The position numbers and the translations under genes are program-made. Positions 1-12,080 of a stretch of 12,147 nucleotides of DNA are shown piece after piece. The notes beneath the pieces were generated by a model, which saw only the letters and a list, made by a program, of their open reading frames with translations, made no database searches and was not told where the DNA came from. The stretch comes from a virus (taxonomy: Duplodnaviria > Heunggongvirae > Uroviricota > Caudoviricetes). The first letter of the stretch is position 1. Each line of letters starts with the position of its first letter. The stretch is taken from the IMG/VR virus record IMGVR_UViG_2778261218_000003. One strand, given 5' to 3'.

Positions 1-543
1 ATGAAACGTTCAATTATTGCTGCCGCTGTCTTTTCTTCTTTTTTTATGAGCGCTGGAGTATTTGCTGCAGACGTTGATACCGGAACATTAACTATTAAGG
101 GGAATATTGCAGAATCTCCGTGTAAATTCGAAGCGGGTGGTGATTCAGTAAGTATTAATATGCCGACTGTACCAACCACTGTCTTTGAAGGTAAAGCTAA
201 ATATTCTACCTATGATGATGCAGTCGGTGTAACCAGCAGCATGTTAAAAATTAGCTGCCCGAAAGAAGTTGCTGGTGTAAAACTCTCGTTGATTACCAAC
301 GATAAAATAACCGGTAACGATAAGGCGATAGCCAGTAGCAACGATACCGTGGGTTACTATCTCTATTTAGGTGATAACAGCGATGTCCTGGATGTTTCTG
401 CACCTTTTAACATTGAGAGTTATAAAACAGCGGAAGGTCAATATGCTATTCCGTTTAAAGCAAAATACCTGAAACTGACAGATAACTCAGTGCAATCAGG
501 TGATGTGTTATCTTCTCTGGTTATGCGTGTGGCGCAGGATTAA
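1..543 (+). CDS. yehD: Fimbrial major subunit (chaperone-usher pilin), YehD-like
   Basis: 180-aa ORF with ATG at base 1 and an N-terminal signal peptide (MKRSIIAAAVFSSFFMSAGVFA). It is the first gene of a pilin-chaperone-usher-adhesin array, followed by an intrinsic terminator-like hairpin. Gene identity is recalled from the E. coli yehDCBA-rcnBA-rcnR neighbourhood, not searched. Confidence 0.85.
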   Translation: MKRSIIAAAVFSSFFMSAGVFAADVDTGTLTIKGNIAESPCKFEAGGDSVSINMPTVPTTVFEGKAKYSTYDDAVGVTSSMLKISCPKEVAGVKLSLITNDKITGNDKAIASSNDTVGYYLYLGDNSDVLDVSAPFNIESYKTAEGQYAIPFKAKYLKLTDNSVQSGDVLSSLVMRVAQD

Positions 544-580
544 TAAATAAAATTGCAAGTTTCTCCAGGTAATAAACATG

Positions 581-606
581 GCCGCTATCCCCATGGCGGC
601 TTTTTA
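581..606 (+). terminator. Intrinsic terminator/attenuator-like hairpin between the pilin and chaperone genes
   Basis: 8-bp stem GCCGCTAT / ATGGCGGC (one G-U pair), CCCC loop, then TTTTT at 601-605. This is the usual position for a partial terminator after the major subunit gene in fimbrial operons. Confidence 0.5.
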
Positions 607-623
607 ATTTAAGAGGCATTAAG

Positions 624-1298
624 ATGAAAGGATTATTATCTTTACTCATTTTTTCTATGGTCCTTCCTGCACATGCCGGAATTGTTATCTACGGGACGCG
701 CATTATTTACCCGGCAGAAAATAAAGAAGTTATGGTGCAGTTGATGAACCAGGGAAACCGTTCTTCGCTGCTGCAGGCGTGGATTGATGATGGCGATACG
801 TCGTTACCACCAGAAAAAATTCAGGTTCCTTTCATGTTAACGCCACCAGTGGCAAAAATAGGGGCAAATTCCGGGCAGCAAGTAAAAATCAAAATTATGC
901 CGAATAAACTGCCCACTAATAAAGAAAGCATTTTTTATCTGAATGTTCTGGATATTCCACCAAATAGTCCAGAACAAGAAGGTAAGAATGCACTGAAGTT
1001 TGCGATGCAAAACAGAATCAAATTGTTTTACCGCCCGGCGGGTATTGCTCCGGTAAATAAAGCGACCTTTAAAAAGTTACTGGTAAGTCGCAGTGGCAAT
1101 GGATTGGTGATAAAAAATGACTCAGCTAATTGGGTGACGATTTCGGATGTCAAAGCTAATAATGTCAAAGTCAATTATGAAACTATAATGATTGCCCCCT
1201 TAGAAAGTCAGAGTGTTAATGTCAAAAGTAATAATGCAAATAACTGGTATCTGACCATTATCGATGACCACGGCAACTATATTAGTGACAAAATTTAA
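624..1298 (+). CDS. yehC: Periplasmic fimbrial chaperone (PapD-like)
   Basis: 224-aa ORF with RBS AAGAGG at 611-616 and signal peptide MKGLLSLLIFSMVLPAHA. The N-terminal region (GIVIYGTRIIYPAENKEVMVQLMNQGNRSSLLQAWID) fits the PapD-like chaperone pattern. An in-frame stop at 606-608 excludes a longer N-terminus. Confidence 0.85.
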   Translation: MKGLLSLLIFSMVLPAHAGIVIYGTRIIYPAENKEVMVQLMNQGNRSSLLQAWIDDGDTSLPPEKIQVPFMLTPPVAKIGANSGQQVKIKIMPNKLPTNKESIFYLNVLDIPPNSPEQEGKNALKFAMQNRIKLFYRPAGIAPVNKATFKKLLVSRSGNGLVIKNDSANWVTISDVKANNVKVNYETIMIAPLESQSVNVKSNNANNWYLTIIDDHGNYISDKI

Positions 1299-1313
1299 TT
1301 GCAGGAGCTGCCT

Positions 1314-3794
1314 ATGTTGAGAATGACCCCACTTGCATCAGCAATCGTAGCGTTATTGCTCGGCATTGAAGCTTATGCAGCTGAAGAAACCTTTGATACC
1401 CATTTTATGATAGGTGGAATGAAAGACCAGCAGGTTGCAAATATTCGTCTTGATGATAATCAACCCTTACCGGGGCAGTATGACATCGATATTTATGTCA
1501 ATAAGCAATGGCGCGGGAAATATGAGATTATTGTTAAAGACAACCCGCAAGAAACATGTTTATCAATAGAAGTTATCAAGCGGTTAGGCATTAATAGCGA
1601 TAACTTCGCCAGCGGTAAGCAATGTTTAACATTTGAGCAACTTGTTCAGGGTGGGAGCTATACCTGGGATATCGGGGTTTTTCGTCTCGATTTCAGTGTC
1701 CCGCAGGCCTGGGTGGAAGAACTGGAAAGTGGCTATGTTCCACCGGAAAACTGGGAGCGGGGTATTAATGCGTTTTATACCTCTTATTATGTGAGTCAGT
1801 ATTACAGTGACTATAAAGCGTCGGGTAATAGTAAGAGTACATATGTACGTTTTAACAGCGGGTTAAATTTACTGGGGTGGCAACTGCATTCTGATGCCAG
1901 TTTCAGTAAAACAAATAACAATCCAGGGGTGTGGAAAAGCAATACCCTGTATCTGGAACGTGGATTTGCCCAACTTCTCGGCACGCTTCGCGTGGGTGAT
2001 ATGTACACATCAAGCGATATTTTTGATTCTGTTCGCTTCAGCGGTGTGCGGTTGTTTCGTGATATGCAGATGTTGCCTAACTCGAAACAAAATTTTACGC
2101 CACGGGTGCAGGGGATTGCTCAGAGTAATGCGCTGGTAACTATTGAACAGAACGGTTTTGTGGTTTATCAGAAAGAGGTTCCTCCTGGCCCGTTCGCGAT
2201 TACAGATTTGCAGTTGGCCGGTGGTGGAGCAGATCTTGATGTCAGCGTGAAAGAGGCGGACGGCTCGGTAACCACCTATCTGGTGCCTTATGCAGCAGTG
2301 CCAAATATGCTGCAACCCGGCGTATCGAAATATGATTTTGCGGCGGGTCGTAGCCATATTGAAGGGGCGAGCAAACAAAGTGATTTTGTCCAGGCGGGTT
2401 ATCAGTATGGTTTTAATAATTTATTGACGCTGTATGGTGGCTCGATGGTCGCGAATAATTATTACGCGTTTACTTTGGGGACTGGCTGGAATACACGCAT
2501 TGGTGCCATTTCCGTCGATGCCACGAAGTCGCATAGTAAACAAGACAACGGCGATGTGTTTGACGGGCAAAGTTATCAAATTGCCTACAACAAATTTGTG
2601 AGCCAAACGTCGACGCGTTTTGGTCTGGCGGCCTGGCGTTATTCATCGCGTGATTACCGGACATTTAATGATCACGTTTGGGCAAACAATAAAGATAATT
2701 ATCGCCGTGATGAAAACGATGTCTATGACATTGCCGATTATTACCAGAACGATTTTGGCCGTAAAAATAGCTTCTCTGCCAATATGAGCCAGTCATTGCC
2801 AGAAGGCTGGGGGTCTGTGTCCTTAAGTACGTTATGGCGAGATTACTGGGGGCGTAGCGGCAGCAGTAAGGATTATCAGTTGAGTTATTCCAATAACTGG
2901 CGGCGGATAAGCTATATCCTCGCGGCAAGCCAGGCGTATGACGAGAATCATCATGAAGAGAAACGTTTTAATATTTTTATATCGATTCCCTTTGATTGGG
3001 GTGATGACGTTACGACGCCTCGTCGGCAAATATATATGTCTAACTCAACGACGTTTGATGATCAGGGGTTTGCCTCAAATAATACGGGATTATCAGGAAC
3101 CGTTGGAAGCCGGGATCAGTTTAACTATGGGGTCAACCTGAGTTATCAGAATCAGGGAAATGAAACGACAGCTGGGGCGAATTTGACCTGGAACGCGCCG
3201 GTTGCGACAGTGAATGGCAGTTATAGTCAGTCGAGTACTTATCGACAGGCTGGAGCCAGTGTTTCAGGGGGCATTGTCGCCTGGTCGGGGGGCGTTAATC
3301 TGGCGAACCGTCTTTCCGAAACGTTTGCTGTGATGAATGCGCCAGGAATTAAAGATGCTTATGTCAATGGGCAAAAATATCGCACAACAAACCGTAATGG
3401 AGTGGTGGTATACGACGGAATGACACCTTATCGGGAAAATCACCTGATGCTGGATGTGTCGCAAAGCGATAGCGAAGCAGAATTACGTGGCAACCGGAAA
3501 ATTGCCGCCCCTTATCGCGGCGCGGTTGTACTGGTTAATTTTGATACCGATCAGCGCAAGCCCTGGTTTATTAAAGCGTTAAGAGCGGATGGTCAACCAT
3601 TAATGTTTGGTTATGAAGTCAATGATATCCATGGTCATAATATTGGCGTTGTCGGTCAGGGAAGCCAGTTATTTATTCGCACCAATGAAGTACCGCCATC
3701 GGTTAATGTGGCAATTGATAAGCAACAAGGACTTTCATGCACAATCACCTTCGGTAAAGAGATTGATGAAAGTAGAAATTATATTTGCCAGTAA
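1314..3794 (+). CDS. yehB: Outer-membrane fimbrial usher protein
   Basis: About 826-aa ORF, the size of usher proteins, sitting between chaperone and adhesin genes. I prefer the ATG at 1314 (RBS AGGAG at 1303-1307) over the track start at 1299; it gives a signal-peptide-like N-terminus MLRMTPLASAIVALLLGIEAYA. Confidence 0.85.
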   Translation: MLRMTPLASAIVALLLGIEAYAAEETFDTHFMIGGMKDQQVANIRLDDNQPLPGQYDIDIYVNKQWRGKYEIIVKDNPQETCLSIEVIKRLGINSDNFASGKQCLTFEQLVQGGSYTWDIGVFRLDFSVPQAWVEELESGYVPPENWERGINAFYTSYYVSQYYSDYKASGNSKSTYVRFNSGLNLLGWQLHSDASFSKTNNNPGVWKSNTLYLERGFAQLLGTLRVGDMYTSSDIFDSVRFSGVRLFRDMQMLPNSKQNFTPRVQGIAQSNALVTIEQNGFVVYQKEVPPGPFAITDLQLAGGGADLDVSVKEADGSVTTYLVPYAAVPNMLQPGVSKYDFAAGRSHIEGASKQSDFVQAGYQYGFNNLLTLYGGSMVANNYYAFTLGTGWNTRIGAISVDATKSHSKQDNGDVFDGQSYQIAYNKFVSQTSTRFGLAAWRYSSRDYRTFNDHVWANNKDNYRRDENDVYDIADYYQNDFGRKNSFSANMSQSLPEGWGSVSLSTLWRDYWGRSGSSKDYQLSYSNNWRRISYILAASQAYDENHHEEKRFNIFISIPFDWGDDVTTPRRQIYMSNSTTFDDQGFASNNTGLSGTVGSRDQFNYGVNLSYQNQGNETTAGANLTWNAPVATVNGSYSQSSTYRQAGASVSGGIVAWSGGVNLANRLSETFAVMNAPGIKDAYVNGQKYRTTNRNGVVVYDGMTPYRENHLMLDVSQSDSEAELRGNRKIAAPYRGAVVLVNFDTDQRKPWFIKALRADGQPLMFGYEVNDIHGHNIGVVGQGSQLFIRTNEVPPSVNVAIDKQQGLSCTITFGKEIDESRNYICQ

Positions 3795-3809
3795 TAGTCA
3801 GGTGGTTCT

Positions 3810-4844
3810 ATGGAAATTCGCATAATGCTATTTATATTAATGATGATGGTTATGCCTGTGAGCTATGCGGCATGTTATAGTGAGTTATCTGTTCAGCACA
3901 ACTTGGTTGTTCAGGGGGATTTTGCACTTACTCAAACACAAATGGCGACATATGAGCATAATTTTAATGATTCGTCATGCGTAAGTACAAATACTATCAC
4001 CCCTATGAGCCCGTCGGATATTATTGTTGGACTTTATAACGATACCATAAAATTAAATTTACATTTTGAATGGACCAATAAAAACAACATCACGTTGTCA
4101 AATAATCAGACCAGTTTCACCAGTGGTTATTCAGTTACGGTGACACCTGCGGCCAGTAATGCAAAAGTGAATGTTTCTGCGGGGGGCGGCGGTTCAGTGA
4201 TGATTAATGGTGTTGCGACATTATCCAGTGCTTCATCATCGACACGCGGGAGTGCCGCAGTACAATTTCTACTGTGTTTATTAGGTGGCAAGTCATGGGA
4301 TGCATGTGTAAATAGCTACAGAAATGCATTGGCACAAAATGCAGGTGTCTATTCCTTTAATCTGACATTGTCATACAACCCGATAACCACAACCTGCAAA
4401 CCGGATGATTTATTAATTACTTTAGACAGTATTCCCGTTTCACAATTACCAGCCACAGGTAACAAAGCAACAATAAATAGTAAAAAAGAGGATATTATTC
4501 TGCGTTGTAAAAATTTATTAGGTCAACAAAATCAAACATCACGGAAAATGCAGGTGTATTTATCAAGTTCTGACTTGTTAACCAACAGCAACACAATACT
4601 GAAAGGTGCGGAAGATAATGGCGTAGGATTTATTCTTGAAAGTAATGGTTCGCCAGTCACACTTTTAAATATCACTAACAGCAGTAAAGGATATACAAAT
4701 TTAAAGGAAGTTGCGGCGAAGTCAAAACTTACAGATACAACGGTTTCAATTCCGATAACTGCCAGTTACTACGTCTACGATACAAATAAAATTAAATCTG
4801 GCGCACTGGAGGCAACCGCATTAATCAACGTGAAATACGACTAA
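3810..4844 (+). CDS. yehA: Fimbrial adhesin-like / minor subunit protein
   Basis: 344-aa ORF in the last position of the operon, with a hydrophobic N-terminus and Ser/Thr/Asn-rich composition typical of tip adhesins. Followed by a strong terminator. Confidence 0.8.
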   Translation: MEIRIMLFILMMMVMPVSYAACYSELSVQHNLVVQGDFALTQTQMATYEHNFNDSSCVSTNTITPMSPSDIIVGLYNDTIKLNLHFEWTNKNNITLSNNQTSFTSGYSVTVTPAASNAKVNVSAGGGGSVMINGVATLSSASSSTRGSAAVQFLLCLLGGKSWDACVNSYRNALAQNAGVYSFNLTLSYNPITTTCKPDDLLITLDSIPVSQLPATGNKATINSKKEDIILRCKNLLGQQNQTSRKMQVYLSSSDLLTNSNTILKGAEDNGVGFILESNGSPVTLLNITNSSKGYTNLKEVAAKSKLTDTTVSIPITASYYVYDTNKIKSGALEATALINVKYD

Positions 4845-4900
4845 TAACAAGCAAGACGAGCAAGTGGCTAATAATAAAAAATAACAAGGTGTCTGCATTT

Positions 4901-4927
4901 CCCCCTCATGATGAGGGGGCTTTTTTT
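4901..4927 (+). terminator. Rho-independent terminator ending the fimbrial operon, shared with convergent rcnB
   Basis: Stem CCCCCTC (4901-4907) / GAGGGGG (4913-4919), 5-nt loop, then CTTTTTTT (4920-4927). An A-rich tract at 4871-4885 on the other side and the rcnB stop codon inside the T-run suggest it also serves the minus-strand gene. Confidence 0.6.
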
Positions 4928-5264
4928 AGCGATGATAAAAAATCTCACCGTCGTAGGCTTTAATGATTTTACCGTCGGTGTCGCTGATCAACACGTACGC
5001 GCCACCCATATAGGTCCAGTGCGTCCCGGCATCAGGCGCGGGCAGGTTACGTAACTGCCACTGCTTAATGTTGTACTCATCGGTGCGGTACATCTCTGGG
5101 ACGGTATCGCCTGGTTTGAAATGCTTAAAGTCAGCAATGAAACTGCTTAACTCATACTTAGAAATTCCCGAGGTATTGGTCGAACCCGCGGTGGCTGGTG
5201 CGGCCCAGGCGGCACTGGTAACCAGCAAAAGCGCACCCAGCAACATCTTATTTTTAATGGTCAT
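4926..5264 (-). CDS. rcnB: Periplasmic nickel/cobalt homeostasis protein RcnB (YohN)
   Basis: The track ORF (4926-5444) is trimmed to the internal ATG at 5264, giving a 112-aa protein with a signal peptide (MTIKNKMLLGALLLVTSAAWA). It lies immediately downstream of rcnA on the same strand. The sequence matches my recollection of RcnB. Confidence 0.85.
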   Translation of the reverse strand: MTIKNKMLLGALLLVTSAAWAAPATAGSTNTSGISKYELSSFIADFKHFKPGDTVPEMYRTDEYNIKQWQLRNLPAPDAGTHWTYMGGAYVLISDTDGKIIKAYDGEIFYHR

Positions 5265-5379
5265 AAACTCTCCACTTTGGGGATCTGTAATATCAGTCGC
5301 ATATCTTTCCTGCCATACAATATAACTGACAAGCGATATTTTGTTAGTGATCCCATGATTTCGTAAAAAGTGTAAATGA

Positions 5380-5402
5380 AAGGATGCCCTAAAAGCATCC
5401 TT
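5380..5402 (-). terminator. Stem-loop between rcnA and rcnB (possible attenuator)
   Basis: 8-bp inverted repeat AAGGATGC / GCATCCTT with a 7-nt loop. On the minus strand it is followed by a U-rich but interrupted tract. Weak call. Confidence 0.3.
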
Positions 5403-5482
5403 AGCGAGCAGAGAGTCAGCGGAAATAGCTGATTTAAGAATCATCCTGGGCTGAAGATAACATGCAAGCCTAAAGGATTGAG

Positions 5483-6307
5483 TTATCGCATTATGCCCAT
5501 GAAGCCATGTACGCCCATATACACACCAACTAAGCCAATCAACAGACTGGAAAAATAGGGGGCGCGTTTAGCGAGAGTGTTAAATCCGCTCCAGCGTTTT
5601 GCGACCTGCTGAACGCTGATTGCTGCGCCAACGCCTACGGTGATAAGCGTTAACGCCAGGCCAATGCTGAAACTGACGACCAGTGTTGCGCCCAGTGTCA
5701 GGGCTTTCAACTGAATGCATATCAACAGCACGGTAATTGCTGCCGGGCAGGGGATAAGGCCACCGGTTAAGCCAAATAACAAAATTTGCCAGTTGGTGAC
5801 CTCTCTACCATCAAAGCGTCGTTTAATGTCATTGGCATGGGCTCGTGCATGGGCATCCTGATACTCGCCATGTTCGTGATGGTGATGATGTCCATGGTCG
5901 TGGTGATCTTCGTGATCGTGGTGATGATGTTCATGATCATACTCGTGCATATTCTCCAGCCAGTTGCGTTCGCCGCGCCAGGTACGCCAGAACATCCAGA
6001 ACGCGGTGCCAATAATGATCACTGCGGAAATCAGCTGGAGCCACGGTTCTGCTGATTGAGCAGTAAAGCGCTTGCTGATCACCATCCCGCCAAAGGCAAT
6101 TAACCAGACCACTGCGGTATGCGAAATAGTTGCTGCCAGTCCGAGCATCACCGCTTGTTTAATGGTGCCTTTGATGGCGATGATAAACGCCGCCATCATC
6201 GTTTTTGAGTGCCCTGGTTCCAGGCCATGAAGCGCACCAAGTAAGATGGCGCTGGGGATGAAGAACCAGGCGTTTCCTTGCTGAAGAAGAGTTGTAAATT
6301 CGGTCAT
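5483..6307 (-). CDS. rcnA: Nickel/cobalt efflux permease RcnA (YohM)
   Basis: 274-aa membrane protein with several hydrophobic segments and a distinctive His/Asp/Glu-rich loop (HEYDHEHHHHDHEDHHDHGHHHHHEHGE). It is divergent from rcnR across an operator-bearing intergenic region. Confidence 0.9.
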   Translation of the reverse strand: MTEFTTLLQQGNAWFFIPSAILLGALHGLEPGHSKTMMAAFIIAIKGTIKQAVMLGLAATISHTAVVWLIAFGGMVISKRFTAQSAEPWLQLISAVIIIGTAFWMFWRTWRGERNWLENMHEYDHEHHHHDHEDHHDHGHHHHHEHGEYQDAHARAHANDIKRRFDGREVTNWQILLFGLTGGLIPCPAAITVLLICIQLKALTLGATLVVSFSIGLALTLITVGVGAAISVQQVAKRWSGFNTLAKRAPYFSSLLIGLVGVYMGVHGFMGIMR

Positions 6308-6344
6308 GATAATAATTCTTAGTATTAATTCGGCAATCTGATTC

Positions 6345-6379
6345 TACTCCCCCCCAGTACCTGATACTACCCCCCAGTA
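6345..6379 (+). promoter_or_regulatory. Tandem RcnR operator sites in the rcnA-rcnR divergent promoter region
   Basis: Two copies of TACT-(C-tract)-AGTA: TACTCCCCCCCAGTA at 6345-6359 and TACTACCCCCCAGTA at 6365-6379. These fit the published RcnR recognition motif (TACT-G6-N-AGTA read on the other strand). Confidence 0.75.
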
Positions 6380-6427
6380 GATTAATAGTGCTATGATTTT
6401 TCATATTCTTGTTAACCAGGTGTTGCC

Positions 6428-6700
6428 ATGTCTCATACAATCCGTGATAAACAGAAACTGAAAGCGCGTGCCAGTAAGATTCAGGGCCAGGTCGTGGCGC
6501 TCAAGAAAATGCTCGACGAGCCGCACGAATGCGCTGCAGTTTTACAACAGATTGCTGCTATCCGTGGCGCGGTAAACGGTCTGATGCGGGAAGTGATTAA
6601 AGGTCATCTGACGGAACACATCGTTCACCAGGGGGATGAGCTAAAACGTGAAGAAGATCTGGATGTCGTTCTGAAGGTGCTGGATTCATATATCAAATAA
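6428..6700 (+). CDS. rcnR: Ni/Co-responsive transcriptional repressor RcnR (CsoR/RcnR family)
   Basis: 90-aa ORF ([38 protein letters not shown]...), the size and sequence of RcnR, divergent from rcnA. Confidence 0.9.
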
Positions 6701-6789
6701 TTTATTAACGCGATTGTAAAACTGCCGTTTTTCCTCGTTTACAACGCGTGCGCTGGACATTACCATCCTCCTCTGCGATTTATCATCGC

Positions 6790-6841
6790 AACCAAACGAC
6801 TCGGGGTGCCCTTCTGCGTGAAGGCTGAGAAATACCCGTAT
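6790..6841 (+). promoter_or_regulatory. Truncated TPP riboswitch (5' half of the thiM leader aptamer)
   Basis: AACCAAACGACTCGGGGTGCCCTTCTGCGTGAAGGCTGAGAAATACCCGTAT matches my recollection of the E. coli thiM TPP aptamer through P2, P3 and the CUGAGA junction. The expected continuation (CACCTGATCTGGATAATGCCAGCG...) is absent; from 6842 the sequence is unrelated and AT-rich. Confidence 0.7.
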
Positions 6842-6970
6842 TTTCTCATTTAGTGTTTTTTGTGGTTCTGGGTTGTTCGTGGCTGTTTGTGTATGTATTT
6901 GATATTTAAATAATTATTGTATTTTCTTGTTTGTTGTTGTTCGTTGCTGTTCGTAGGGCTTCAACGAAAT

Positions 6971-6994
6971 GTGTGGTCAGTTGTGTGGTCAGTT
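6971..6994 (+). repeat. Perfect tandem 12-bp direct repeat upstream of int (putative arm-type recombinase or IHF binding sites)
   Basis: GTGTGGTCAGTT at 6971-6982 and again at 6983-6994, with further GTTCGT-containing iterations at 6871-6882 and 6933-6957, all between the island junction and the int start. Confidence 0.5.
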
Positions 6995-7029
6995 TTTTGA
7001 GGCTGGAGGACTGAAAAGAGGATCTGATA

Positions 7030-8250
7030 GTGGGAAAAGCACTAAACAAACTGAGCGATTCGACGTTAAAAAAATTGGCGGCTGTCCAGGCAGAAAAAGA
7101 GCGTTTTTACTCCGACGGGGGCGGGCTGGAGATTAAACACTCAAAGGGCGGCAAATTAACCTGGTATTTCCGGTACCGAACGGGAGGCCGTGAGGTTGCC
7201 GCAGAGCGGTTAAAGCTGGGGGCTTACCCTGAATTGTCGCTGAAAGCTGCAAGGGAAAAACGCGCACAGTGCCGGGCATGGCTGGCTGAGGGTAAAAACC
7301 CCCGTTATGAGTTGTGCGCCACAGTACAGGAAGCGCTAAAACCCGTTACGGTGAAGGAGGCGATTAACTACTGGCTGGATGAATATGCGAAGGATAACCG
7401 CAAAGACTACATAAAGCTGGTGCAACGTATGGATAAGCACATCATTTGCCATATAGGGGCAATTCCTCTTGATAAATGCGATACAAGGCAGTGGATCGCA
7501 TGTTTTGACCGTGTACGAAAAAAAGCACCAGTAGCAGCGGGGCACGTCATGCAAACCTGCAAACAGGCGCTAAAGTTCTGCCGCAGGAGGCGCTACGCGT
7601 TCAGTAATGCCCTGGACGATTTGATCGTCAGCGATGTGGGTAAGAGAGCAGAAATTCGCGAGAGGGTGCACAGCAACAGCGAATTAAAGGAAATTCTACG
7701 TGCTATTGATAGTGATGTGTTCGCGCCTTACTACAGCGCGTTAATGCGCTTGCTGATTGTGTTCGGGTGCAGAACGGCAGAGGTCAGACTTTCAGAGATC
7801 AAAGAATGGGATCTGAAAGAAATGTTGTGGACAGTACCAAGAGAGCACAGCAAAACGAAGGTAACGATATTCAGGCCAATCCCCGATGGCATTTTGCCGT
7901 TCATTCAGAAGCTGGTGGATCAGAACCGGCATACAGGGTTATTGCTCGGAGAACTGAAAAAAGATACCACGGTAGCGCAATATGGGCGAAATGCGCATAA
8001 GCGGCTTAAGCAGGAACACTGGACGCTGCATGACTTCCGGCACACGTTTACAACGATGCTGAACGATTTAGGTGTCGATCCGCATATCGTTGAGCACATC
8101 ACAGCGCATCAGATGCCCGGTCAGCAAAAAACCTATAACCATTCACGCTATTTACAGGCGAAGCGGGACGCGTTGAATCTGTGGGTTGAGCGTCTCGATG
8201 TGCTGGCTGGAAATCATGAAAATATTATTATGCTAAAGGTGGCTAAATGA
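7030..8250 (+). CDS. int: Tyrosine site-specific integrase, P4/CP4-57 family
   Basis: 406-aa ORF with a GTG start and RBS AAGAGGA at 7014-7020. The N-terminus is P4-int-like (GGLEIKHSKGGKLTWYFRYRTGGREV...GAYPELSLKAAR). The C-terminal catalytic region carries HDFRHTF (H-x-x-R) and a downstream Tyr (KTYNHSRY). Confidence 0.9.
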   Translation: MGKALNKLSDSTLKKLAAVQAEKERFYSDGGGLEIKHSKGGKLTWYFRYRTGGREVAAERLKLGAYPELSLKAAREKRAQCRAWLAEGKNPRYELCATVQEALKPVTVKEAINYWLDEYAKDNRKDYIKLVQRMDKHIICHIGAIPLDKCDTRQWIACFDRVRKKAPVAAGHVMQTCKQALKFCRRRRYAFSNALDDLIVSDVGKRAEIRERVHSNSELKEILRAIDSDVFAPYYSALMRLLIVFGCRTAEVRLSEIKEWDLKEMLWTVPREHSKTKVTIFRPIPDGILPFIQKLVDQNRHTGLLLGELKKDTTVAQYGRNAHKRLKQEHWTLHDFRHTFTTMLNDLGVDPHIVEHITAHQMPGQQKTYNHSRYLQAKRDALNLWVERLDVLAGNHENIIMLKVAK

Positions 8251-9020
8251 AATTACCAAAAAGACTCTATTATCCGCTACCTGAAGCAGCAGAAAAGTTA
8301 AGCTGTGCAATAAAAGATCTTTATCATTACGCATATATAGGTGCTCTTGATATTTCTGTATATATACCAAAAATTGATGCTAAAAAATTCAATTTATCAT
8401 TATGTCATTTTATCAATGGTTGTAATGAGGAAGAATTAATAAAATATCCGTTCAATGATGAATCTGTTGTTTTTGGCAGTAATTTTACAGTTGGTTTAAC
8501 TGGTGACTCTGAATTTTTAGATAGTGCTATTATTGGTCCGGTAGGGAATTCTATAAAATGTTATTATGTTAGCAGTTTGGAAGGGTTTTATTATACTCCA
8601 GCAAATGTTTTTGCTGATGCTGAATTTAGCATGAGACAATATATAAAATGTTCTCATCTTACGAATAGGTATGGTGATGATAATCTCATGTATGTTTTTT
8701 GTAAGGGTGGTTATGAGTTTGATGTTAACTATTTGTGTGTGATGGCTAGTGATTTAGATAATATAAAAAATACGGGAGACTTCCCGAAGCTAACAGAAGA
8801 TAGCCCAAAAGCATCGTCAAAAAGGAATGAGGTTATTTACTCTTTAATTAAACTTATTCCAGAAATGGGTGATGTAGACCTGGACACGGAATCATTACCT
8901 AAAATAGCGGATTTAATTGATTCTATAGCTGCATCCAGAGGGATAGAATTTCCCAAAACACACTGGCAGACATGGCAAAAGTATTTGGGGCGTGAACCTC
9001 AACAAAAACGTAAAAAGTGA
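8247..9020 (+). CDS. Hypothetical protein, AT-rich orphan cargo gene, no family recognised
   Basis: 257-aa ORF whose ATG overlaps the int stop (ATGA), with RBS AAGGTGG at 8235-8241. It is strongly AT-rich compared with both flanks (by eye, not computed). I recognise no catalytic motif. The N-terminus (KRLYYPLPEAAEKLSCAIKDLYHY) may be a small helix-turn-helix-like segment. Confidence 0.6.
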   Translation: MKLPKRLYYPLPEAAEKLSCAIKDLYHYAYIGALDISVYIPKIDAKKFNLSLCHFINGCNEEELIKYPFNDESVVFGSNFTVGLTGDSEFLDSAIIGPVGNSIKCYYVSSLEGFYYTPANVFADAEFSMRQYIKCSHLTNRYGDDNLMYVFCKGGYEFDVNYLCVMASDLDNIKNTGDFPKLTEDSPKASSKRNEVIYSLIKLIPEMGDVDLDTESLPKIADLIDSIAASRGIEFPKTHWQTWQKYLGREPQQKRKK

Positions 9021-9047
9021 TATCACGTGCTGATAGTGTGATATCAC
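9017..9047 (+). promoter_or_regulatory. Two copies of the perfect 10-bp palindrome GTGATATCAC, 21 bp apart (operator-like)
   Basis: GTGATATCAC at 9017-9026 and 9038-9047, each self-complementary, with centres two helical turns apart. They sit in the short spacer upstream of alpA. Confidence 0.45.
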
Positions 9048-9077
9048 ACACACCACATTTCATCACCGCCTACAATC

Positions 9078-9109
9078 GCCCTCGTTCTATAACGTTCGAG
9101 GGCTTTTTT
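9078..9109 (+). terminator. Terminator-like hairpin abutting the alpA start codon
   Basis: Stem GCCCTCG (9078-9084) / CGAGGGC (9097-9103), 12-nt loop, then TTTTTT (9104-9109) running directly into the alpA ATG at 9110. Confidence 0.45.
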
Positions 9110-9334
9110 ATGAACCAATACAAACAATCCCAATTACCAGCAGATCGAGTAATCCGTGAGGATGAATGTCGAAACTTAACAGGTGTTAGCCGTACCACAC
9201 GCTACGAACTGGAGAAAAAAGGGAATTTCCCGTCACGCCGTAATCTGGGTGGTCGTTCAGTAGGTTGGCTGCTTTCCGAAGTTATGGAATGGGTGCAAAG
9301 CCGTGATCGCGTTAATTCAGGTAAGGCAGCGTAG
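9110..9334 (+). CDS. alpA: AlpA-family phage regulatory protein (small winged-HTH excisionase/activator)
   Basis: The track ORF (9017-9334) is trimmed to the ATG at 9110, giving 74 aa. The protein (MNQYKQSQLPADRVIREDECRNLTGVSRTTRYELEKKGNFPSRRNLGGRSVGWLLSEVMEWV) has the AlpA/Vis-type pattern and sits downstream of int as in CP4-57-like islands. Confidence 0.8.
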   Translation: MNQYKQSQLPADRVIREDECRNLTGVSRTTRYELEKKGNFPSRRNLGGRSVGWLLSEVMEWVQSRDRVNSGKAA

Positions 9335-9342
9335 GGGGAATA

Positions 9343-9471
9343 ATGGCACATAAAACAAAGGCGACCGTAAGAGGTCGCCAGTGGTACAGCACTAAACTTG
9401 AGCGCGTTCAGAATACCAATTTACTAACATCCCGCCAATGCGCTAACGGTATCCACCAGCAATCAACTTAA
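9343..9471 (+). CDS. Possible 42-aa small ORF between alpA and the ant-like gene
   Basis: Found by manual translation: MAHKTKATVRGRQWYSTKLERVQNTNLLTSRQCANGIHQQST, with RBS AGGGGG 4 nt upstream of the ATG at 9343. It contains hairpin copy 1. Coding status is uncertain. Confidence 0.25.
   Translation: MAHKTKATVRGRQWYSTKLERVQNTNLLTSRQCANGIHQQST
9349..9384 (+). repeat. Conserved hairpin element, copy 1
   Basis: ATAAAACAAAGGCGACC-GTAAGA-GGTCGCCAGTGG, with a 7-bp stem GGCGACC/GGTCGCC. Copy 2 at 10583-10619 has identical stem and flanks but a different loop. Confidence 0.6.
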
Positions 9472-9490
9472 TTTTATAGCAGGAGTTTTT

Positions 9491-10291
9491 ATGAAACAGC
9501 GAAAAACGCCCGTACAGGGGCAGGGCTTCGTTCGGCCTGAAAACCAGAATCTGCAAAATTTCGGCGAAATTATCCCGGTTATTTCCGGCATTATTGGCGG
9601 GTGTGAAACCAATATTGTTAGCGCCAGAGCGTTGCATAAGGCGTTAGGTGTAGGTCGCGTTTTCCGTTCGTGGATCAAGGGGCGCATTGAAGAATACGGC
9701 TTCACGGAAGGCGTGGATTATGAGGTTGTTGAATATTTGAGCCGACCCGATCCGGTGAGCGCAAAATCTCGCCAGCAAACAGCTCTTGAGTACATCATTA
9801 CCGTGAACATGGCGAAAGAACTGGCGATGGTCGAACGCACCGAACAGGGCCGCGCCGTTCGCCAGTACTTCATCAAATGCGAGGAGGAGCTACACAAGGT
9901 AGCGCCAGTGCGTTCCGCAGTGTTACGCCGGGAACTGAAAGCCCGTATCACAGTTGCCAGCTACTTTAAGCCAATGTGTGCCGCGCTGGAGGCGTACCGG
10001 GCTGAACTGGGTAAAAACACTCTACAGCACCACTACACCACGGAAGCCAATATGCTGGCGCGTATCGTGCTGGGCGGTATGACTGCCAGACAGTGGGCAC
10101 TGGCGAACGGCATTACAGGCGAACCACGCGACCACATGAGCACGTTGCAGCTTGAGCACCTTTCTTACCTTGAGCAGAGCAATATCACGCTGATTGAGTT
10201 AGGCCAGGGCTACCACCAGCGGAAAGCTGAATTAATTCGTCTTTCGCAGCGTTGGTTAGCCCGTCGCATGGAGGAAAACAGCCATGTGTAA
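9491..10291 (+). CDS. Phage antirepressor-like protein (AntA N-terminal region plus KilAC/ANT-type region)
   Basis: 266-aa ORF with RBS AGGAG at 9481-9485. The N-terminal segment (NIVSARALHKALGVGRVFRSWIKGRIEEYGFTEGVDY) resembles the AntA domain. The central segment (TALEYIITVNMAKELAMVERTEQGRAVRQYFIKCEEEL) resembles the KilAC domain. Both are from memory of those families. Confidence 0.7.
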   Translation: MKQRKTPVQGQGFVRPENQNLQNFGEIIPVISGIIGGCETNIVSARALHKALGVGRVFRSWIKGRIEEYGFTEGVDYEVVEYLSRPDPVSAKSRQQTALEYIITVNMAKELAMVERTEQGRAVRQYFIKCEEELHKVAPVRSAVLRRELKARITVASYFKPMCAALEAYRAELGKNTLQHHYTTEANMLARIVLGGMTARQWALANGITGEPRDHMSTLQLEHLSYLEQSNITLIELGQGYHQRKAELIRLSQRWLARRMEENSHV

Positions 10292-10726
10292 CGCTCTGAC
10301 CGTTACAAAAAGAGAAAGCGCCCCGTTGCCGGAGCGCCTTTGTGAACGAATAGCCTACTGCGCCATATTGCTTACTGTCTACGAGGCAGATTATAGCGTT
10401 GTGGTCGCACAGAGTGAAGGCGCTGATCACCGTTACTACAGCACACCAGAAATGCAGAATATTTTGCTGCAAAATGTCGTTGGTCACGCTGTCCGGAAAG
10501 CAAAAAATTTTGCTGGTGGCGCGACTGATGCGATTTTGTCAGGTAGCCAGGTGCTGATCAATCTGATGTCTGGTTTCGTTCTGGATAAAACAAAGGCGAC
10601 CGCAGAGGGTCGCCAGTGGGTATTACGGCAAATCAAACCTGAATGCATCGCCAACAATGCTGCATTTGTGGCTGGTGGGCAAATCTTTAGTGGAATTTTT
10701 TCCCTGTTGCCTGCACTGGGTAATGG
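10284..10726 (+). CDS. Hypothetical ORF coupled to the ant-like gene; 3' end undefined
   Basis: ATG at 10284 overlaps the ant stop (ATGTGTAA) and is preceded by GGAGG. The first ~150 codons look protein-like, but the frame has no stop until 12080 and runs antisense through three minus-strand genes. The true extent is unknown; it may be a truncated or fused gene remnant. The end coordinate is arbitrary. Confidence 0.3.
10583..10619 (+). repeat. Conserved hairpin element, copy 2
   Basis: ATAAAACAAAGGCGACC-GCAGAG-GGTCGCCAGTGG, same stem and flanks as copy 1, with loop substitutions only. Confidence 0.6.
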
Positions 10727-10909
10727 TTACTTGTATCGCGTATTCCTGCACAAAACAGGACTGCTTTTTTTGATGAAATCCTCAAGCAAAAAACACTCTG
10801 TTGATGCTCTTGGTAATTCTCTGGTGGAAGGATGGGGTTTTATCCCCCATTTTCGTTTACGTTCTTCCAGAAAGGAGGTGAGTATATCTAGTTTCTGTGC
10901 GTCCATCAT
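10727..10909 (-). CDS. Small hypothetical protein (60 aa), distal gene of the minus-strand operon
   Basis: ORF MMDAQKLDILTSFLEERKRKWGIKPHPSTRELPRASTECF... with a weak RBS (AAGAG). Its position in a same-strand array after the RHH gene supports it modestly. Confidence 0.3.
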   Translation of the reverse strand: MMDAQKLDILTSFLEERKRKWGIKPHPSTRELPRASTECFLLEDFIKKSSPVLCRNTRYK

Positions 10910-10966
10910 TTTTCTCTTGGATACTGCTTTGTGCCATGGATCCTCACACCACGGCGCTGATAGTGG

Positions 10967-11146
10967 TTATTTCTGCTCTTCAACATCACCATGTCGTGAT
11001 GTTTTCCAGGTATATAGCCCCATTTTTGTGCGCTTGTGCGTTTTAAGAAATTGCTCAAGGTGGAAGGTTTTAACCTTTCCCTGTTCGGTTTCTTGTGCAA
11101 TTTCTTTCGCCATTTGCTGGGCTAAAAAATCTTTTAATTTAGGCAT
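10967..11146 (-). CDS. Small hypothetical protein (59 aa), second gene of the minus-strand operon
   Basis: Below the ORF-track size cutoff; found by manual translation: MPKLKDFLAQQMAKEIAQETEQGKVKTFHLEQFLKTHKRTKMGLYTWKTSRHGDVEEQK. RBS AGGGGG lies 7 nt upstream and it has balanced, charged, helical composition. It starts 70 nt after the RHH gene stop. Confidence 0.45.
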   Translation of the reverse strand: MPKLKDFLAQQMAKEIAQETEQGKVKTFHLEQFLKTHKRTKMGLYTWKTSRHGDVEEQK

Positions 11147-11215
11147 GGTTCGCCCCCTGCTTACAGTCTGGCGCTCGAGTTCCTTAGGCTCTGGCGCGAA
11201 TGGTGATTATTCTGG

Positions 11216-11515
11216 CTACCCTTTGGCCTTGCGCCGCTGGAGTTCTTCACGAGCAACGGAAACAAGCTGCTCTATATTTTCGGCGAGTTCGACCCCTATT
11301 TTTTCCATTTGTTCCAGCGCATCGAGCGAAGAAACCAGGGGATTTTCTCCGCTTCCTTCTGCCTGGCGGCGGGCGATCTCACCGCGTACAGCCGTAACTA
11401 TAAAATTCGCTTTAGTTTCCCCTGGCTGTAGGGATGCCTCAATGCCACTCACTACTTCATGTGGAAATCTGGCATTCAGTTGCTGTGACTTATTGTTAAC
11501 AGAACTCGTGGACAT
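11216..11515 (-). CDS. Ribbon-helix-helix (Arc/MetJ/CopG-like) DNA-binding protein, possibly YlcI/YnfO-like
   Basis: The track ORF (11216-11692) is trimmed to the ATG at 11515, which has a strong RBS (GGAGGTG). The 99-aa protein (MSTSSVNNKSQQLNARFPHEVVSGIEASLQPGETKANFIVTAVRGEIARR...) has the beta-strand then helix pattern of RHH regulators at its N-terminus. It faces an operator-rich divergent region. Confidence 0.65.
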   Translation of the reverse strand: MSTSSVNNKSQQLNARFPHEVVSGIEASLQPGETKANFIVTAVRGEIARRQAEGSGENPLVSSLDALEQMEKIGVELAENIEQLVSVAREELQRRKAKG

Positions 11516-11558
11516 GTTTGCACCTCCGATTAATAACGGGATGCAGTGTAATACAAAA

Positions 11559-11614
11559 GTGAATACCAAAAAAGACTTGAAATGGTATTCACCAAAATGT
11601 AATCTGAATACCAC
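11559..11614 (+). promoter_or_regulatory. Operator-like repeats in the divergent control region
   Basis: Perfect 10-bp inverted repeat GTGAATACCA (11559-11568) / TGGTATTCAC (11583-11592) with a 14-bp spacer, plus a third half-site TGAATACCAC at 11605-11614. They lie between the RHH gene start (11515, minus) and the plus-strand gene at 11715. Confidence 0.5.
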
Positions 11615-11714
11615 AAGGGCTGATACATGCAATTCAGCAATTGAAACGACGAAGCCCCGCACTGTTGGAGCAGTAACGGGGCTTCTAACCAAACCGTTAA
11701 CAGGAGTAACGATT

Positions 11715-12080
11715 ATGGCTGGAACACAGCATACCCAAACTCACCCTAAATTTATATACACCTTCTTGGCGGTGCACCGTGATTGCATAGCTGACGGTAA
11801 AAACACTGTACACGTAGCCGCCGATACGCTGGTTGATGCCTGCGAGATGCTCAATGACATGGGCTATATCTCGGCAACATGGAAAGGGCGCGAAGAAAAC
11901 ACGCTGTTTATTCAGAAATGCGAGAACAATTTTATCTGGCGTTTTATCGCCCTGAGTACAGCACAACCGCGCGTGATTCACATCGAGGCCACCAGCGAAC
12001 AGGAAGCCCGCCAGCAATCTCCTGATGGCTGCGTGATGGTATTCGCTGCCCGTATTCGCCAGGAGGTGGAACATGTGTAA
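11715..12080 (+). CDS. Hypothetical protein (121 aa), first gene of the rightward operon
   Basis: ATG at 11715 with RBS AGGAG at 11702-11706 (MAGTQHTQTHPKFIYTFLAVHRDCIADGKNTVHVAAD...). It is in frame with, and forms the 3' part of, the 598-aa track ORF. I prefer it to the overlapping minus ORF 11697-12116, which is Cys/His-rich and low-complexity. Confidence 0.55.
   Translation: MAGTQHTQTHPKFIYTFLAVHRDCIADGKNTVHVAADTLVDACEMLNDMGYISATWKGREENTLFIQKCENNFIWRFIALSTAQPRVIHIEATSEQEARQQSPDGCVMVFAARIRQEVEHV

Follow-up and report, generated by a model that had tools for sequence, protein, structure and literature searches.

Free-standing phage-inducible chromosomal islands of Escherichia coli are dense in conserved Chi octamers

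In Escherichia coli, RecBCD enters DNA at double-strand ends and degrades it until it meets the Chi octamer (GCTGGTGG) from the 3' side, and then loads RecA. Phage P1 needs both RecBCD and RecA, and in lambda red gam mutants packageable concatemers require Chi-stimulated recombination or relief from RecBCD. The P1 genome contains 50 Chi in 94.8 kb, or one per 1.9 kb, distributed over both strands (31/50) with no preference for open reading frames (ORFs), and these sites have been proposed to help RecBCD and RecA circularize the injected linear DNA (bioRxiv 10.1101/2021.07.08.451572; PMC12315714). Phage LLS has one Chi per 1.86 kb, lacks a recombination (Rec) module and is aided in its growth by RecBCD, and in both P1 and LLS Chi is the commonest octamer with TGCTGGTG second (PMC12315714). 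Among lambdoid phages, Chi is abundant in those lacking a Rec module and nearly absent from those with Gam and Rec functions (PMC3784561; PMC12315714). Phage-inducible chromosomal islands (PICIs) of the EcCICFT073 type are satellites that the helper terminase packages from concatemers and that are injected as linear DNA (PMC6092414). Full-text searches of an incomplete library found no literature linking Chi to PICIs or to satellites in general; PMC12315714 and PMC3784561 contain no mention of satellites or PICIs, and PMC10111431 makes no link to Chi. Chi enrichment, known in some phages, has apparently not been described for satellites. The subject here is the Chi content of a 12,147-bp stretch of DNA (IMG/VR record IMGVR_UViG_2778261218_000003, referred to as the window), whose right-hand 5.3 kb is assigned from its genes to an island of this type, and of the relatives of that island.

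A pattern search of both strands finds exactly six Chi in the window (Table 1) and none in positions 1-7910. The same six, with their coordinates and strands, had been listed in an initial annotation made by eye from the sequence, which placed them in 5.3 kb of island and found none in the 6.8 kb of adjoining chromosome. Both the positions and the length of the island are confirmed, the boundary falling at ~6842 next to the att core, and no site in the chromosomal part had been missed. The absence from the chromosome is correct as a count but carries no information, as 1.49 sites would be expected there and finding none is unremarkable (P = 0.23). The visible island has 1.13 Chi/kb compared with 0.217/kb in the host, the K-12 genome carrying 1008 Chi per 4.64 Mb (217/Mb; bioRxiv 10.1101/2021.07.08.451572), and at the K-12 density 5.3 kb would hold 1.15 sites (Poisson P of at least six, 1.2e-3). 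Dinucleotide-preserving shuffles of the window contained 0.33 Chi on average and never more than 3, with at least six in 0/200. Synonymous-codon shuffles, which preserve each protein and its codon usage, were also exceeded under both gene models of the island: with seven genes, and the three Chi in noncoding sequence held fixed, the expected total was 3.64 and at least six occurred in 14/3000 shuffles, and with 10284-12080 treated as one gene the corresponding values were 1.81 and 0/3000. The local density is therefore unusual against shuffles and the E. coli average, but the window alone proves nothing, because some 2-7 six-site clusters as tight as this one are expected by chance per 4.6-Mb genome at host density (Poisson estimates from the published 1008 sites per 4.64 Mb together with 91 kb of chromosomal flanks). 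It is the relatives that settle the question.

Among four annotated relatives, EcCICFT073 carries 11 Chi in 11.4 kb, L001, which occupies the same rcnR-thiM site as the window island, 11 in 11.2 kb, L002 (in yifB) 13 in 12.4 kb, and L094 (at tRNA-Pro and with terS) 19 in 13.4 kb. The density per island is 0.96-1.4/kb against 0.217/kb in the host, and the pooled chromosomal flanks have 16 Chi in 91 kb; the lineage thus carries about 1 Chi/kb, four to five times the host density. For a broader comparison, 90 IMG/VR loci were fetched via the integrase and the Icd-like protein, and shared 17-mers split them into a large set of satellite-sized loci with 0.6-1.5 Chi/kb and a cluster of 28 loci with 0.1-0.6/kb. 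Because sites shared by descent had to be removed, the sequence of each island that BLAST-aligned to islands already counted was masked. After this de-duplication the first set, the free PICIs, retained 92,990 bp with 62 Chi (0.667/kb), where 20 would be expected at host density (Poisson P = 6e-14), and the second retained 30,385 bp with 9 Chi (0.30/kb), which does not differ from the host. In the de-duplicated free set Chi is the commonest octamer, its 62 occurrences being followed by poly-A/T words with 39 or fewer, and it ranks first in over-representation under Markov models of orders 1-5, with TGCTGGTG next at low orders.

The 62 sites show no consensus outside the eight bases and thus are not copies of a repeat. 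This also bears on the idea that the octamer is a binding site for a satellite or helper protein, or a part of a structured element, and matches Chi by coincidence. Such a role would suit the clusters in noncoding stretches (10512 and 10671 in the window; the region upstream of terS in L094), but the sites are alike only in the exact Chi octamer, they occur within and between genes on either strand, and the same word heads the octamer lists of P1 and LLS, all of which makes this explanation extremely improbable. An RNA element beneath the sites was also considered and dropped, as Rfam at gathering thresholds returned no RNA element in the window.

A second possibility is that the sites are functionless in themselves and reflect a chance cluster, codon usage, base composition or amelioration to the host. 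Apart from the clusters expected in any genome, this would find support in site 9453, which is private to the window, and in the fact that Chi contains the commonest leucine codon, site 7911 being read in the sense direction as CTG-GTG. The codon-usage caveat raised in the initial annotation fits that one site and not the other five, since 10213 and 11989 are antisense and 9453, 10512 and 10671 lie outside recognizable genes. In the four annotated islands, under PGAP gene models, 8-10 coding Chi were seen compared with 0.9-2.3 in synonymous shuffles, a 4-8 fold excess, and the observed totals were reached by 0/1000 shuffles. The 49 Chi of these islands comprise 19 (39%) in the 23.5% of the sequence that is outside annotated genes, 16 antisense and 14 sense, so that antisense sites are as many as sense ones; in E. 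coli, 997/1008 Chi are within ORFs (bioRxiv 10.1101/2021.07.08.451572). Island GC is 0.44-0.51, not above that of the host, and amelioration could bring the density at most to the host level. The Chi density is unexplained by codon usage or base composition. With the excess recurring in the non-homologous sequence of many islands, with Chi as the single most frequent octamer, and with octamers kept within diverged noncoding flanks, chance and codon usage are largely refuted by the family-level tests, and sites without any function of their own are very improbable.

Conservation of the individual sites was assessed by comparing mismatches within the octamer with those in the flanks of ±100 nt, across homologous loci, some of them related to one another, so that the counts do not represent independent events (Table 1). 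Related islands share five of the six sites, which bears on a question already raised in the initial annotation, and at four of these five the octamer mismatch is 0.6-1.9% compared with 4.7-15.3% in the flanks. The sixth, 9453, is missing from the sole homologous locus found. Sites 10512 and 10671 behave as expected under purifying selection on the octamer, since both octamers are kept in diverged DNA without a coding signature. Among relatives, the variable columns of 10292-10790 by codon position number 25/27/28 and 10/14/10, with no excess at third positions, whereas int, antA and icd, taken as controls, all show that excess (Table 1).

The Chi-poor cluster of 28 loci corresponds to the helper-embedded PICI type exemplified by 11capE in 61icd, which replicates as part of the excised composite (PMC10111431). 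These elements belong to the same satellite family as the window island, share its gene order, encode an Icd-like protein that is 83-87% identical, and keep the Chi site of the Icd-like gene in part (Table 1). They differ in residing in a late gene of a Gam+ Bet+ Exo+ lambdoid prophage, in replicating with it, and in a Chi content at about host level (0.27-0.30/kb for de-duplicated and embedded sequence, with 0.1-0.3/kb also given). In NZ_CP027462.1 (L093 3132-14279, with L095 and L096), a lambdoid prophage is integrated at icd and a PICI lies within its major capsid gene. The prophage encodes Gam, Bet and lambda exonuclease and has 1 Chi in 48.3 kb; the satellite within it has 3 in 11.1 kb. 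The Gam+ Bet+ Exo+ lambdoid prophage adjoining EcCICFT073 has 0 Chi in 42.7 kb. Satellite P4 offers a further contrast: it is also an integrative, helper-dependent E. coli satellite of 11.6 kb with a primase replicon, yet it has zero Chi in 11,624 bp. P2, which packages P4, uses monomeric circles for this and not concatemers. The P4 integrase belongs to a related clade and has been grouped with those of PICIs (PMC10111431). Dense Chi is therefore a property of the free-standing PICI lineage and not of satellites or horizontally acquired DNA in general, because helper-embedded PICIs and P4 are Chi-poor, and all three contrasts (Gam+ prophages, embedded PICIs, P4) fit the logic of RecBCD.

The preferred reading, to which we give a probability of roughly 0.6, is that selection maintains Chi in these satellites as a means of restraining RecBCD, or of enlisting it, on DNA that is linear or concatemeric, as in P1 and the Rec-less lambdoid phages. 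What is observed is the sites themselves, their excess, how well they are kept, and how poor in Chi the compared relatives and helpers are; that RecBCD is involved, and at which stage of the life cycle, goes beyond this and is inferred. An anti-RecBCD adaptation tied to excision, rolling-circle or packaged linear forms had been suggested in the initial annotation. With the density now found to be lineage-wide and conserved, this is the most economical reading, except that excision must be removed from it, because excision by a tyrosine integrase leaves a circle without ends. In this scheme, Chi on both strands would be kept by selection so that RecBCD entering a satellite double-strand end from either side would soon meet a correctly oriented site. 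Such ends might be found on the tail of a rolling circle or concatemer, on DNA cut by terminase, or on the linear molecule after injection. RecBCD would cease degradation at Chi and load RecA, which would protect satellite DNA and favor recombination by which multimers and circles are made or resolved. Candidate stages are donor replication before or without Gam, the time at which terminase-cut ends are present, and entry into a naive cell. The annotated relatives carry a replicon of their own, which includes SSB and either a primase or a RepA helicase. The annotations of L001, L002, L094 and EcCICFT073 list no recombinase, exonuclease or RecBCD inhibitor, and Pfam and PHROGs reveal none among the hypothetical proteins of EcCICFT073.

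Compared with P1, the satellites likewise have Chi above host density and as top octamer with TGCTGGTG next, on both strands (38/62 in satellites) and without preference for ORFs; no RecBCD inhibitor was recognized in the satellites. They differ in being about twice as dense (~1/kb compared with 0.53/kb) and in being helper-dependent elements of 11-13 kb that integrate by a tyrosine integrase, and whereas a need for RecBCD and RecA is documented for P1, transfer of PICIs into a recA recipient has been reported. With LLS and 62 other Rec-less lambdoid phages (PMC12315714; PMC3784561) the satellites, in which no recombinase or Gam was recognized, share high Chi, an enrichment beyond codon usage and, in at least one island (L094), dense Chi beside the presumed packaging region; the rule that Gam+ Rec+ relatives are nearly Chi-free is reproduced here in the two prophages described above. 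The differences are that in LLS-type phages Chi are oriented ~7:1 with respect to cos and cluster at one end of the genome, whereas the satellites lack polarity, and that helper-embedded PICIs break the rule by having low Chi and no Rec module. Another close system is EcCICFT073 itself, which is the prototype of Gram-negative PICIs (PMC6092414). It shares with the window island and its relatives the order int, alpA, leftward small genes including YlcI/YnfO, Icd-like gene, DUF4222, primase and SSB, and its Chi include one in int equivalent to 7911; it differs in its att site (roxA-phoQ instead of the thiM riboswitch) and in lacking the AntA gene and the 257-aa cargo gene.

The two-way orientation noted in the window is general, as de-duplicated Chi split 38:24 when the islands are read from int to icd. 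Sites of both orientations are intermingled over the length of the islands, and opposite sites often lie close together in pairs, such as one in the SSB gene with sites 26 bp apart and one near the right end. A lambda-type cosN, GGGCGGCGACCT, was found only in a few islands (L011, L036, L088 and EcCICFT073). An arrangement of Chi around a packaging site was looked for and none emerged, cosN being present in few islands and in two opposite copies in EcCICFT073. In the latter (L098), exact GGGCGGCGACCT copies are found at 21559 (+) and 22298 (-), in opposite orientation and 740 bp apart, and a one-mismatch copy occurs at 17384, in the primase gene; two cosN sequences have been reported for this island (PMC6092414). 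In L094, the 1.16 kb directly upstream of terS (10608-11773) contains no ORF longer than 112 aa, several terminator-like hairpins and five Chi (10813-, 10919+, 11125+, 11232+ and 11449-), and may be a candidate packaging-site region.

The balanced orientation of 38:24 would also fit a role in stopping RecBCD from either direction for another purpose, namely self-mimicry against CRISPR adaptation, by which fewer RecBCD products would reach Cas1-Cas2 and fewer spacers would be acquired from the satellite. Levy et al. reportedly found in 2015 that Chi limits spacer acquisition. However, no data point specifically to CRISPR, type I-E adaptation in E. coli is usually silent, and the same benefit would be expected for the Chi-poor P4, helper-embedded PICIs and lambdoid phages, so that this explanation appears quite improbable. 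Somewhat less so, though still unlikely, is the view that Chi acts as a recombination hotspot driving the exchange of modules among satellites and with prophages, without a part in DNA protection or maturation. The islands are indeed strongly mosaic, with alternating unique and shared segments, and Chi occurs near module borders (int/cargo, antA/regulatory region and the right end of the island). The best complete E. coli genome covers no more than 76% of the window, with matches in pieces, and this particular mosaic is therefore absent from the collection of complete E. coli genomes. Selection for evolvability is, however, a second-order force, weak beside any direct effect on replication and transfer, and module exchange leaves unexplained why the equally mosaic helper-embedded PICIs and P4 lack the enrichment. 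Both of these rivals account for the contrast with P4 and embedded PICIs less well than does selection for handling RecBCD.

Several points weigh against that preferred reading. The known helpers of EcCICFT073 include lambda and phi80 (PMC6092414), and the lambdoid prophage adjoining this island encodes Gam; if Gam is active during satellite replication, Chi would be irrelevant at that stage. In the transfer table of PMC6092414, the recA recipient DH5alpha gave titers similar to those of rec+ strains, from which it can be argued that a RecA-dependent step is not required for establishment. Helper-embedded PICIs are also without a recognizable Rec module and yet are not Chi-rich, so that the lack of such a module does not by itself predict high Chi. 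Islands with a lambda-type cosN show no Chi polarity around it, unlike LLS, where the ratio is 20:3. The small island proteins without an assigned function could include an unrecognized RecBCD inhibitor, and the greater part of the window island extends past the end of the window. Finally, a Klebsiella relative has ~5-6 Chi in ~13.5 kb, near the density of its host. It came from a scan of one genome per species with the Icd-like protein, which gave three loci only (the corresponding integrase scan gave none); the E. ruysiae locus resembles the E. coli islands, and the Klebsiella and Pectobacterium loci are too few and too different for judging generality.

The features of the window are collected in Table 1. 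Positions 1-6700 correspond to E. coli yehDCBA, rcnB, rcnA and rcnR with up to 99% identity, the mobile island starts at ~6842, and the window ends (12147) inside it. On the presence of int, AlpA, AntA, YlcI/YnfO and Icd-like genes, in an order that matches validated EcCICFT073 and L001, it is identified as the left arm of an EcCICFT073-type PICI, an E. coli phage satellite. The tyrosine integrase stands at the island end beside a specific att site with a direct repeat, the attR of which is seen in L001. The leftward 59-aa and YlcI/YnfO genes face the rightward Icd-like gene in a divergent regulatory layout, as in EcCICFT073. The 5.3 kb visible part holds no tail or lysis genes, and relatives of 11-13 kb are also without them; past the Icd-like gene, the annotated relatives have DUF4222, a primase or a RepA helicase, and SSB, followed in some by capsid and decoration genes and in others by a small terminase. 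EcCICFT073 was located in the CFT073 genome in the roxA-phoQ interval, and shares patches of 75-92% nucleotide identity with the window island. The location of the latter, between rcnR and thiM and within the thiM leader, sets it apart from the helper-embedded type. Just inside both island ends lies a 70-nt repeat with tandem TGTGGTCAG (6972 and 6984 in the window), probably a set of predicted integrase arm sites.

Table 1. Features of the window, with conservation of the Chi sites in homologous loci (flanks of ±100 nt).
Feature	Position	Strand	Context and evidence	Octamer mismatch	Flank mismatch	Loci keeping the site
attL core AGAAATACCCGTAT	6828-6841	+	left junction; middle of the thiM thiamine pyrophosphate (TPP) riboswitch aptamer; same 14 nt at attL and attR of relative L001, same chromosomal site			
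70-nt segment, just inside both island ends	6927-6996	+	direct repeat D1 in L001, 18915-18984 and 29884-29953, 94% identical			
Tyrosine integrase (int), arm-binding N-terminal domain	7030-8250	+	Pfam Arm-DNA-bind_3 2e-18, Phage_integrase 6e-17; variable columns by codon position 106/56/233			
Chi 1	7911-7918	+	sense in int, read xxG CTG GTG Gxx; equivalent site in EcCICFT073 int (L098 12815)	0.8%	9.3%	14/15
257-aa cargo gene, AT-rich	8247-9020	+	no Chi; GC 0.31-0.39; between int and alpA			
AlpA-family regulator (alpA)	9110-9334	+	Pfam Phage_AlpA 1e-16; ORF open from 9017, likely start ATG 9110			
Chi 2	9453-9460	-	intergenic, alpA-antA; covered by no gene model			
AntA/AntB-type anti-repressor gene (antA)	9491-10291	+	Pfam AntA 2.6e-23; PHROG anti-repressor Ant; codon periodicity 27/30/87			
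Chi 3	10213-10220	-	antisense inside antA	0%	1%	36/36
Stretch without recognizable gene, with Chi 4 and Chi 5	10292-10966		unannotated by PGAP in relative L002; no family match; part of 598-codon open frame			
Chi 4	10512-10519	+	stretch without coding signature	0.7%	4.7%	34/36
Chi 5	10671-10678	+	stretch without coding signature	0.6%	15.3%	38/40
Small leftward gene, 59 aa	10967-11146	-	phrog_21027 6.6e-13; annotated in L002 and EcCICFT073			
YlcI/YnfO-family gene, leftward	11216-11515	-	NF041551 1.3e-16; phrog_6522 7e-40			
Icd-like gene (icd), first of rightward operon	11712-12080	+	NF033153 6e-23; codon periodicity 26/22/60			
Chi 6	11989-11996	-	antisense inside Icd-like gene	1.9%	6.1%	77/91 (59/63 free PICIs, 18/28 helper-embedded PICIs)

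The 257-aa protein encoded between int and alpA has no match in Pfam, PADLOC, NCBIfam or PHROGs, and a defense-system identity for it was dropped on this account. In L001, at the same chromosomal site, the slot holds a DUF6387 gene; the slot looks like a variable cargo position, possibly an anti-phage one. A frame without stop codons, 598 codons long (10284-12080), runs from the end of antA through ~680 nt and then antisense over the two leftward genes into the Icd-like gene, and most free-PICI relatives also lack stops in this frame over 300-600 codons upstream of Icd. This run exceeds chance expectation, yet a protein finds no other support, and the ORF was rejected as a single gene: its sole family match is the C-terminal Icd-like domain, two real genes lie antisense within it, and its first 500 nt lack codon periodicity among relatives.

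The island interrupts the thiM TPP riboswitch aptamer midway (window 6786-6841; L001 18826-18839 and ~30018-30077). The uninterrupted K-12 site (L103 1837-1933) matches RF00059 with 71.2 bits. A lysogen retains the 5' half of the riboswitch and the thiM promoter region at attL; next to thiM, at attR, there is the 3' half alone, and the score is 30.5 bits, below the RF00059 gathering score of 54.3. Integration thus seems to split the riboswitch controlling thiMD without rebuilding it. Two other word pairs are over-represented in the de-duplicated satellite set. GGTAGACA/TGTCTACC occurs 13 times compared with ~1 expected, in small clusters just 3' of the primase gene (L002 ~19300-19490; L017 segment 7888-7973) that may be candidate origin iterons, and ACTGTTCA/TGAACAGT occurs 24 times compared with 4-6.

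Chi enrichment has previously been used to argue for reliance on host RecBCD in Rec-less phages, and the stronger signature found here extends this logic to a second layer of parasitism. In its furthest form, which we advance only tentatively and hold to be less likely than its opposite, the free EcCICFT073-type PICIs would be the most Chi-dense of E. coli replicons (~1-1.5/kb, on both strands) and would depend on the host RecBCD-Chi-RecA pathway for building or protecting the concatemers required by a lambdoid terminase, or for surviving entry in linear form. Helper dependence of induction, replication and packaging has been shown experimentally for EcCICFT073 only (PMC6092414). The prediction is that replication, packaging or establishment of PICIs would depend on RecBCD, Chi and helper Gam. 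At a practical level, Chi density is a simple sequence marker that parts free-standing PICIs from helper-embedded PICIs and P4. If this furthest form holds, the lack of dense Chi in P4 and in satellites inside Gam+ prophages would be accounted for, and the Gam status of the helper and the rec genotype of the host would be hidden determinants of satellite spread. What controls the transfer of PICIs is of practical weight because PICIs carry virulence and anti-phage cargo.

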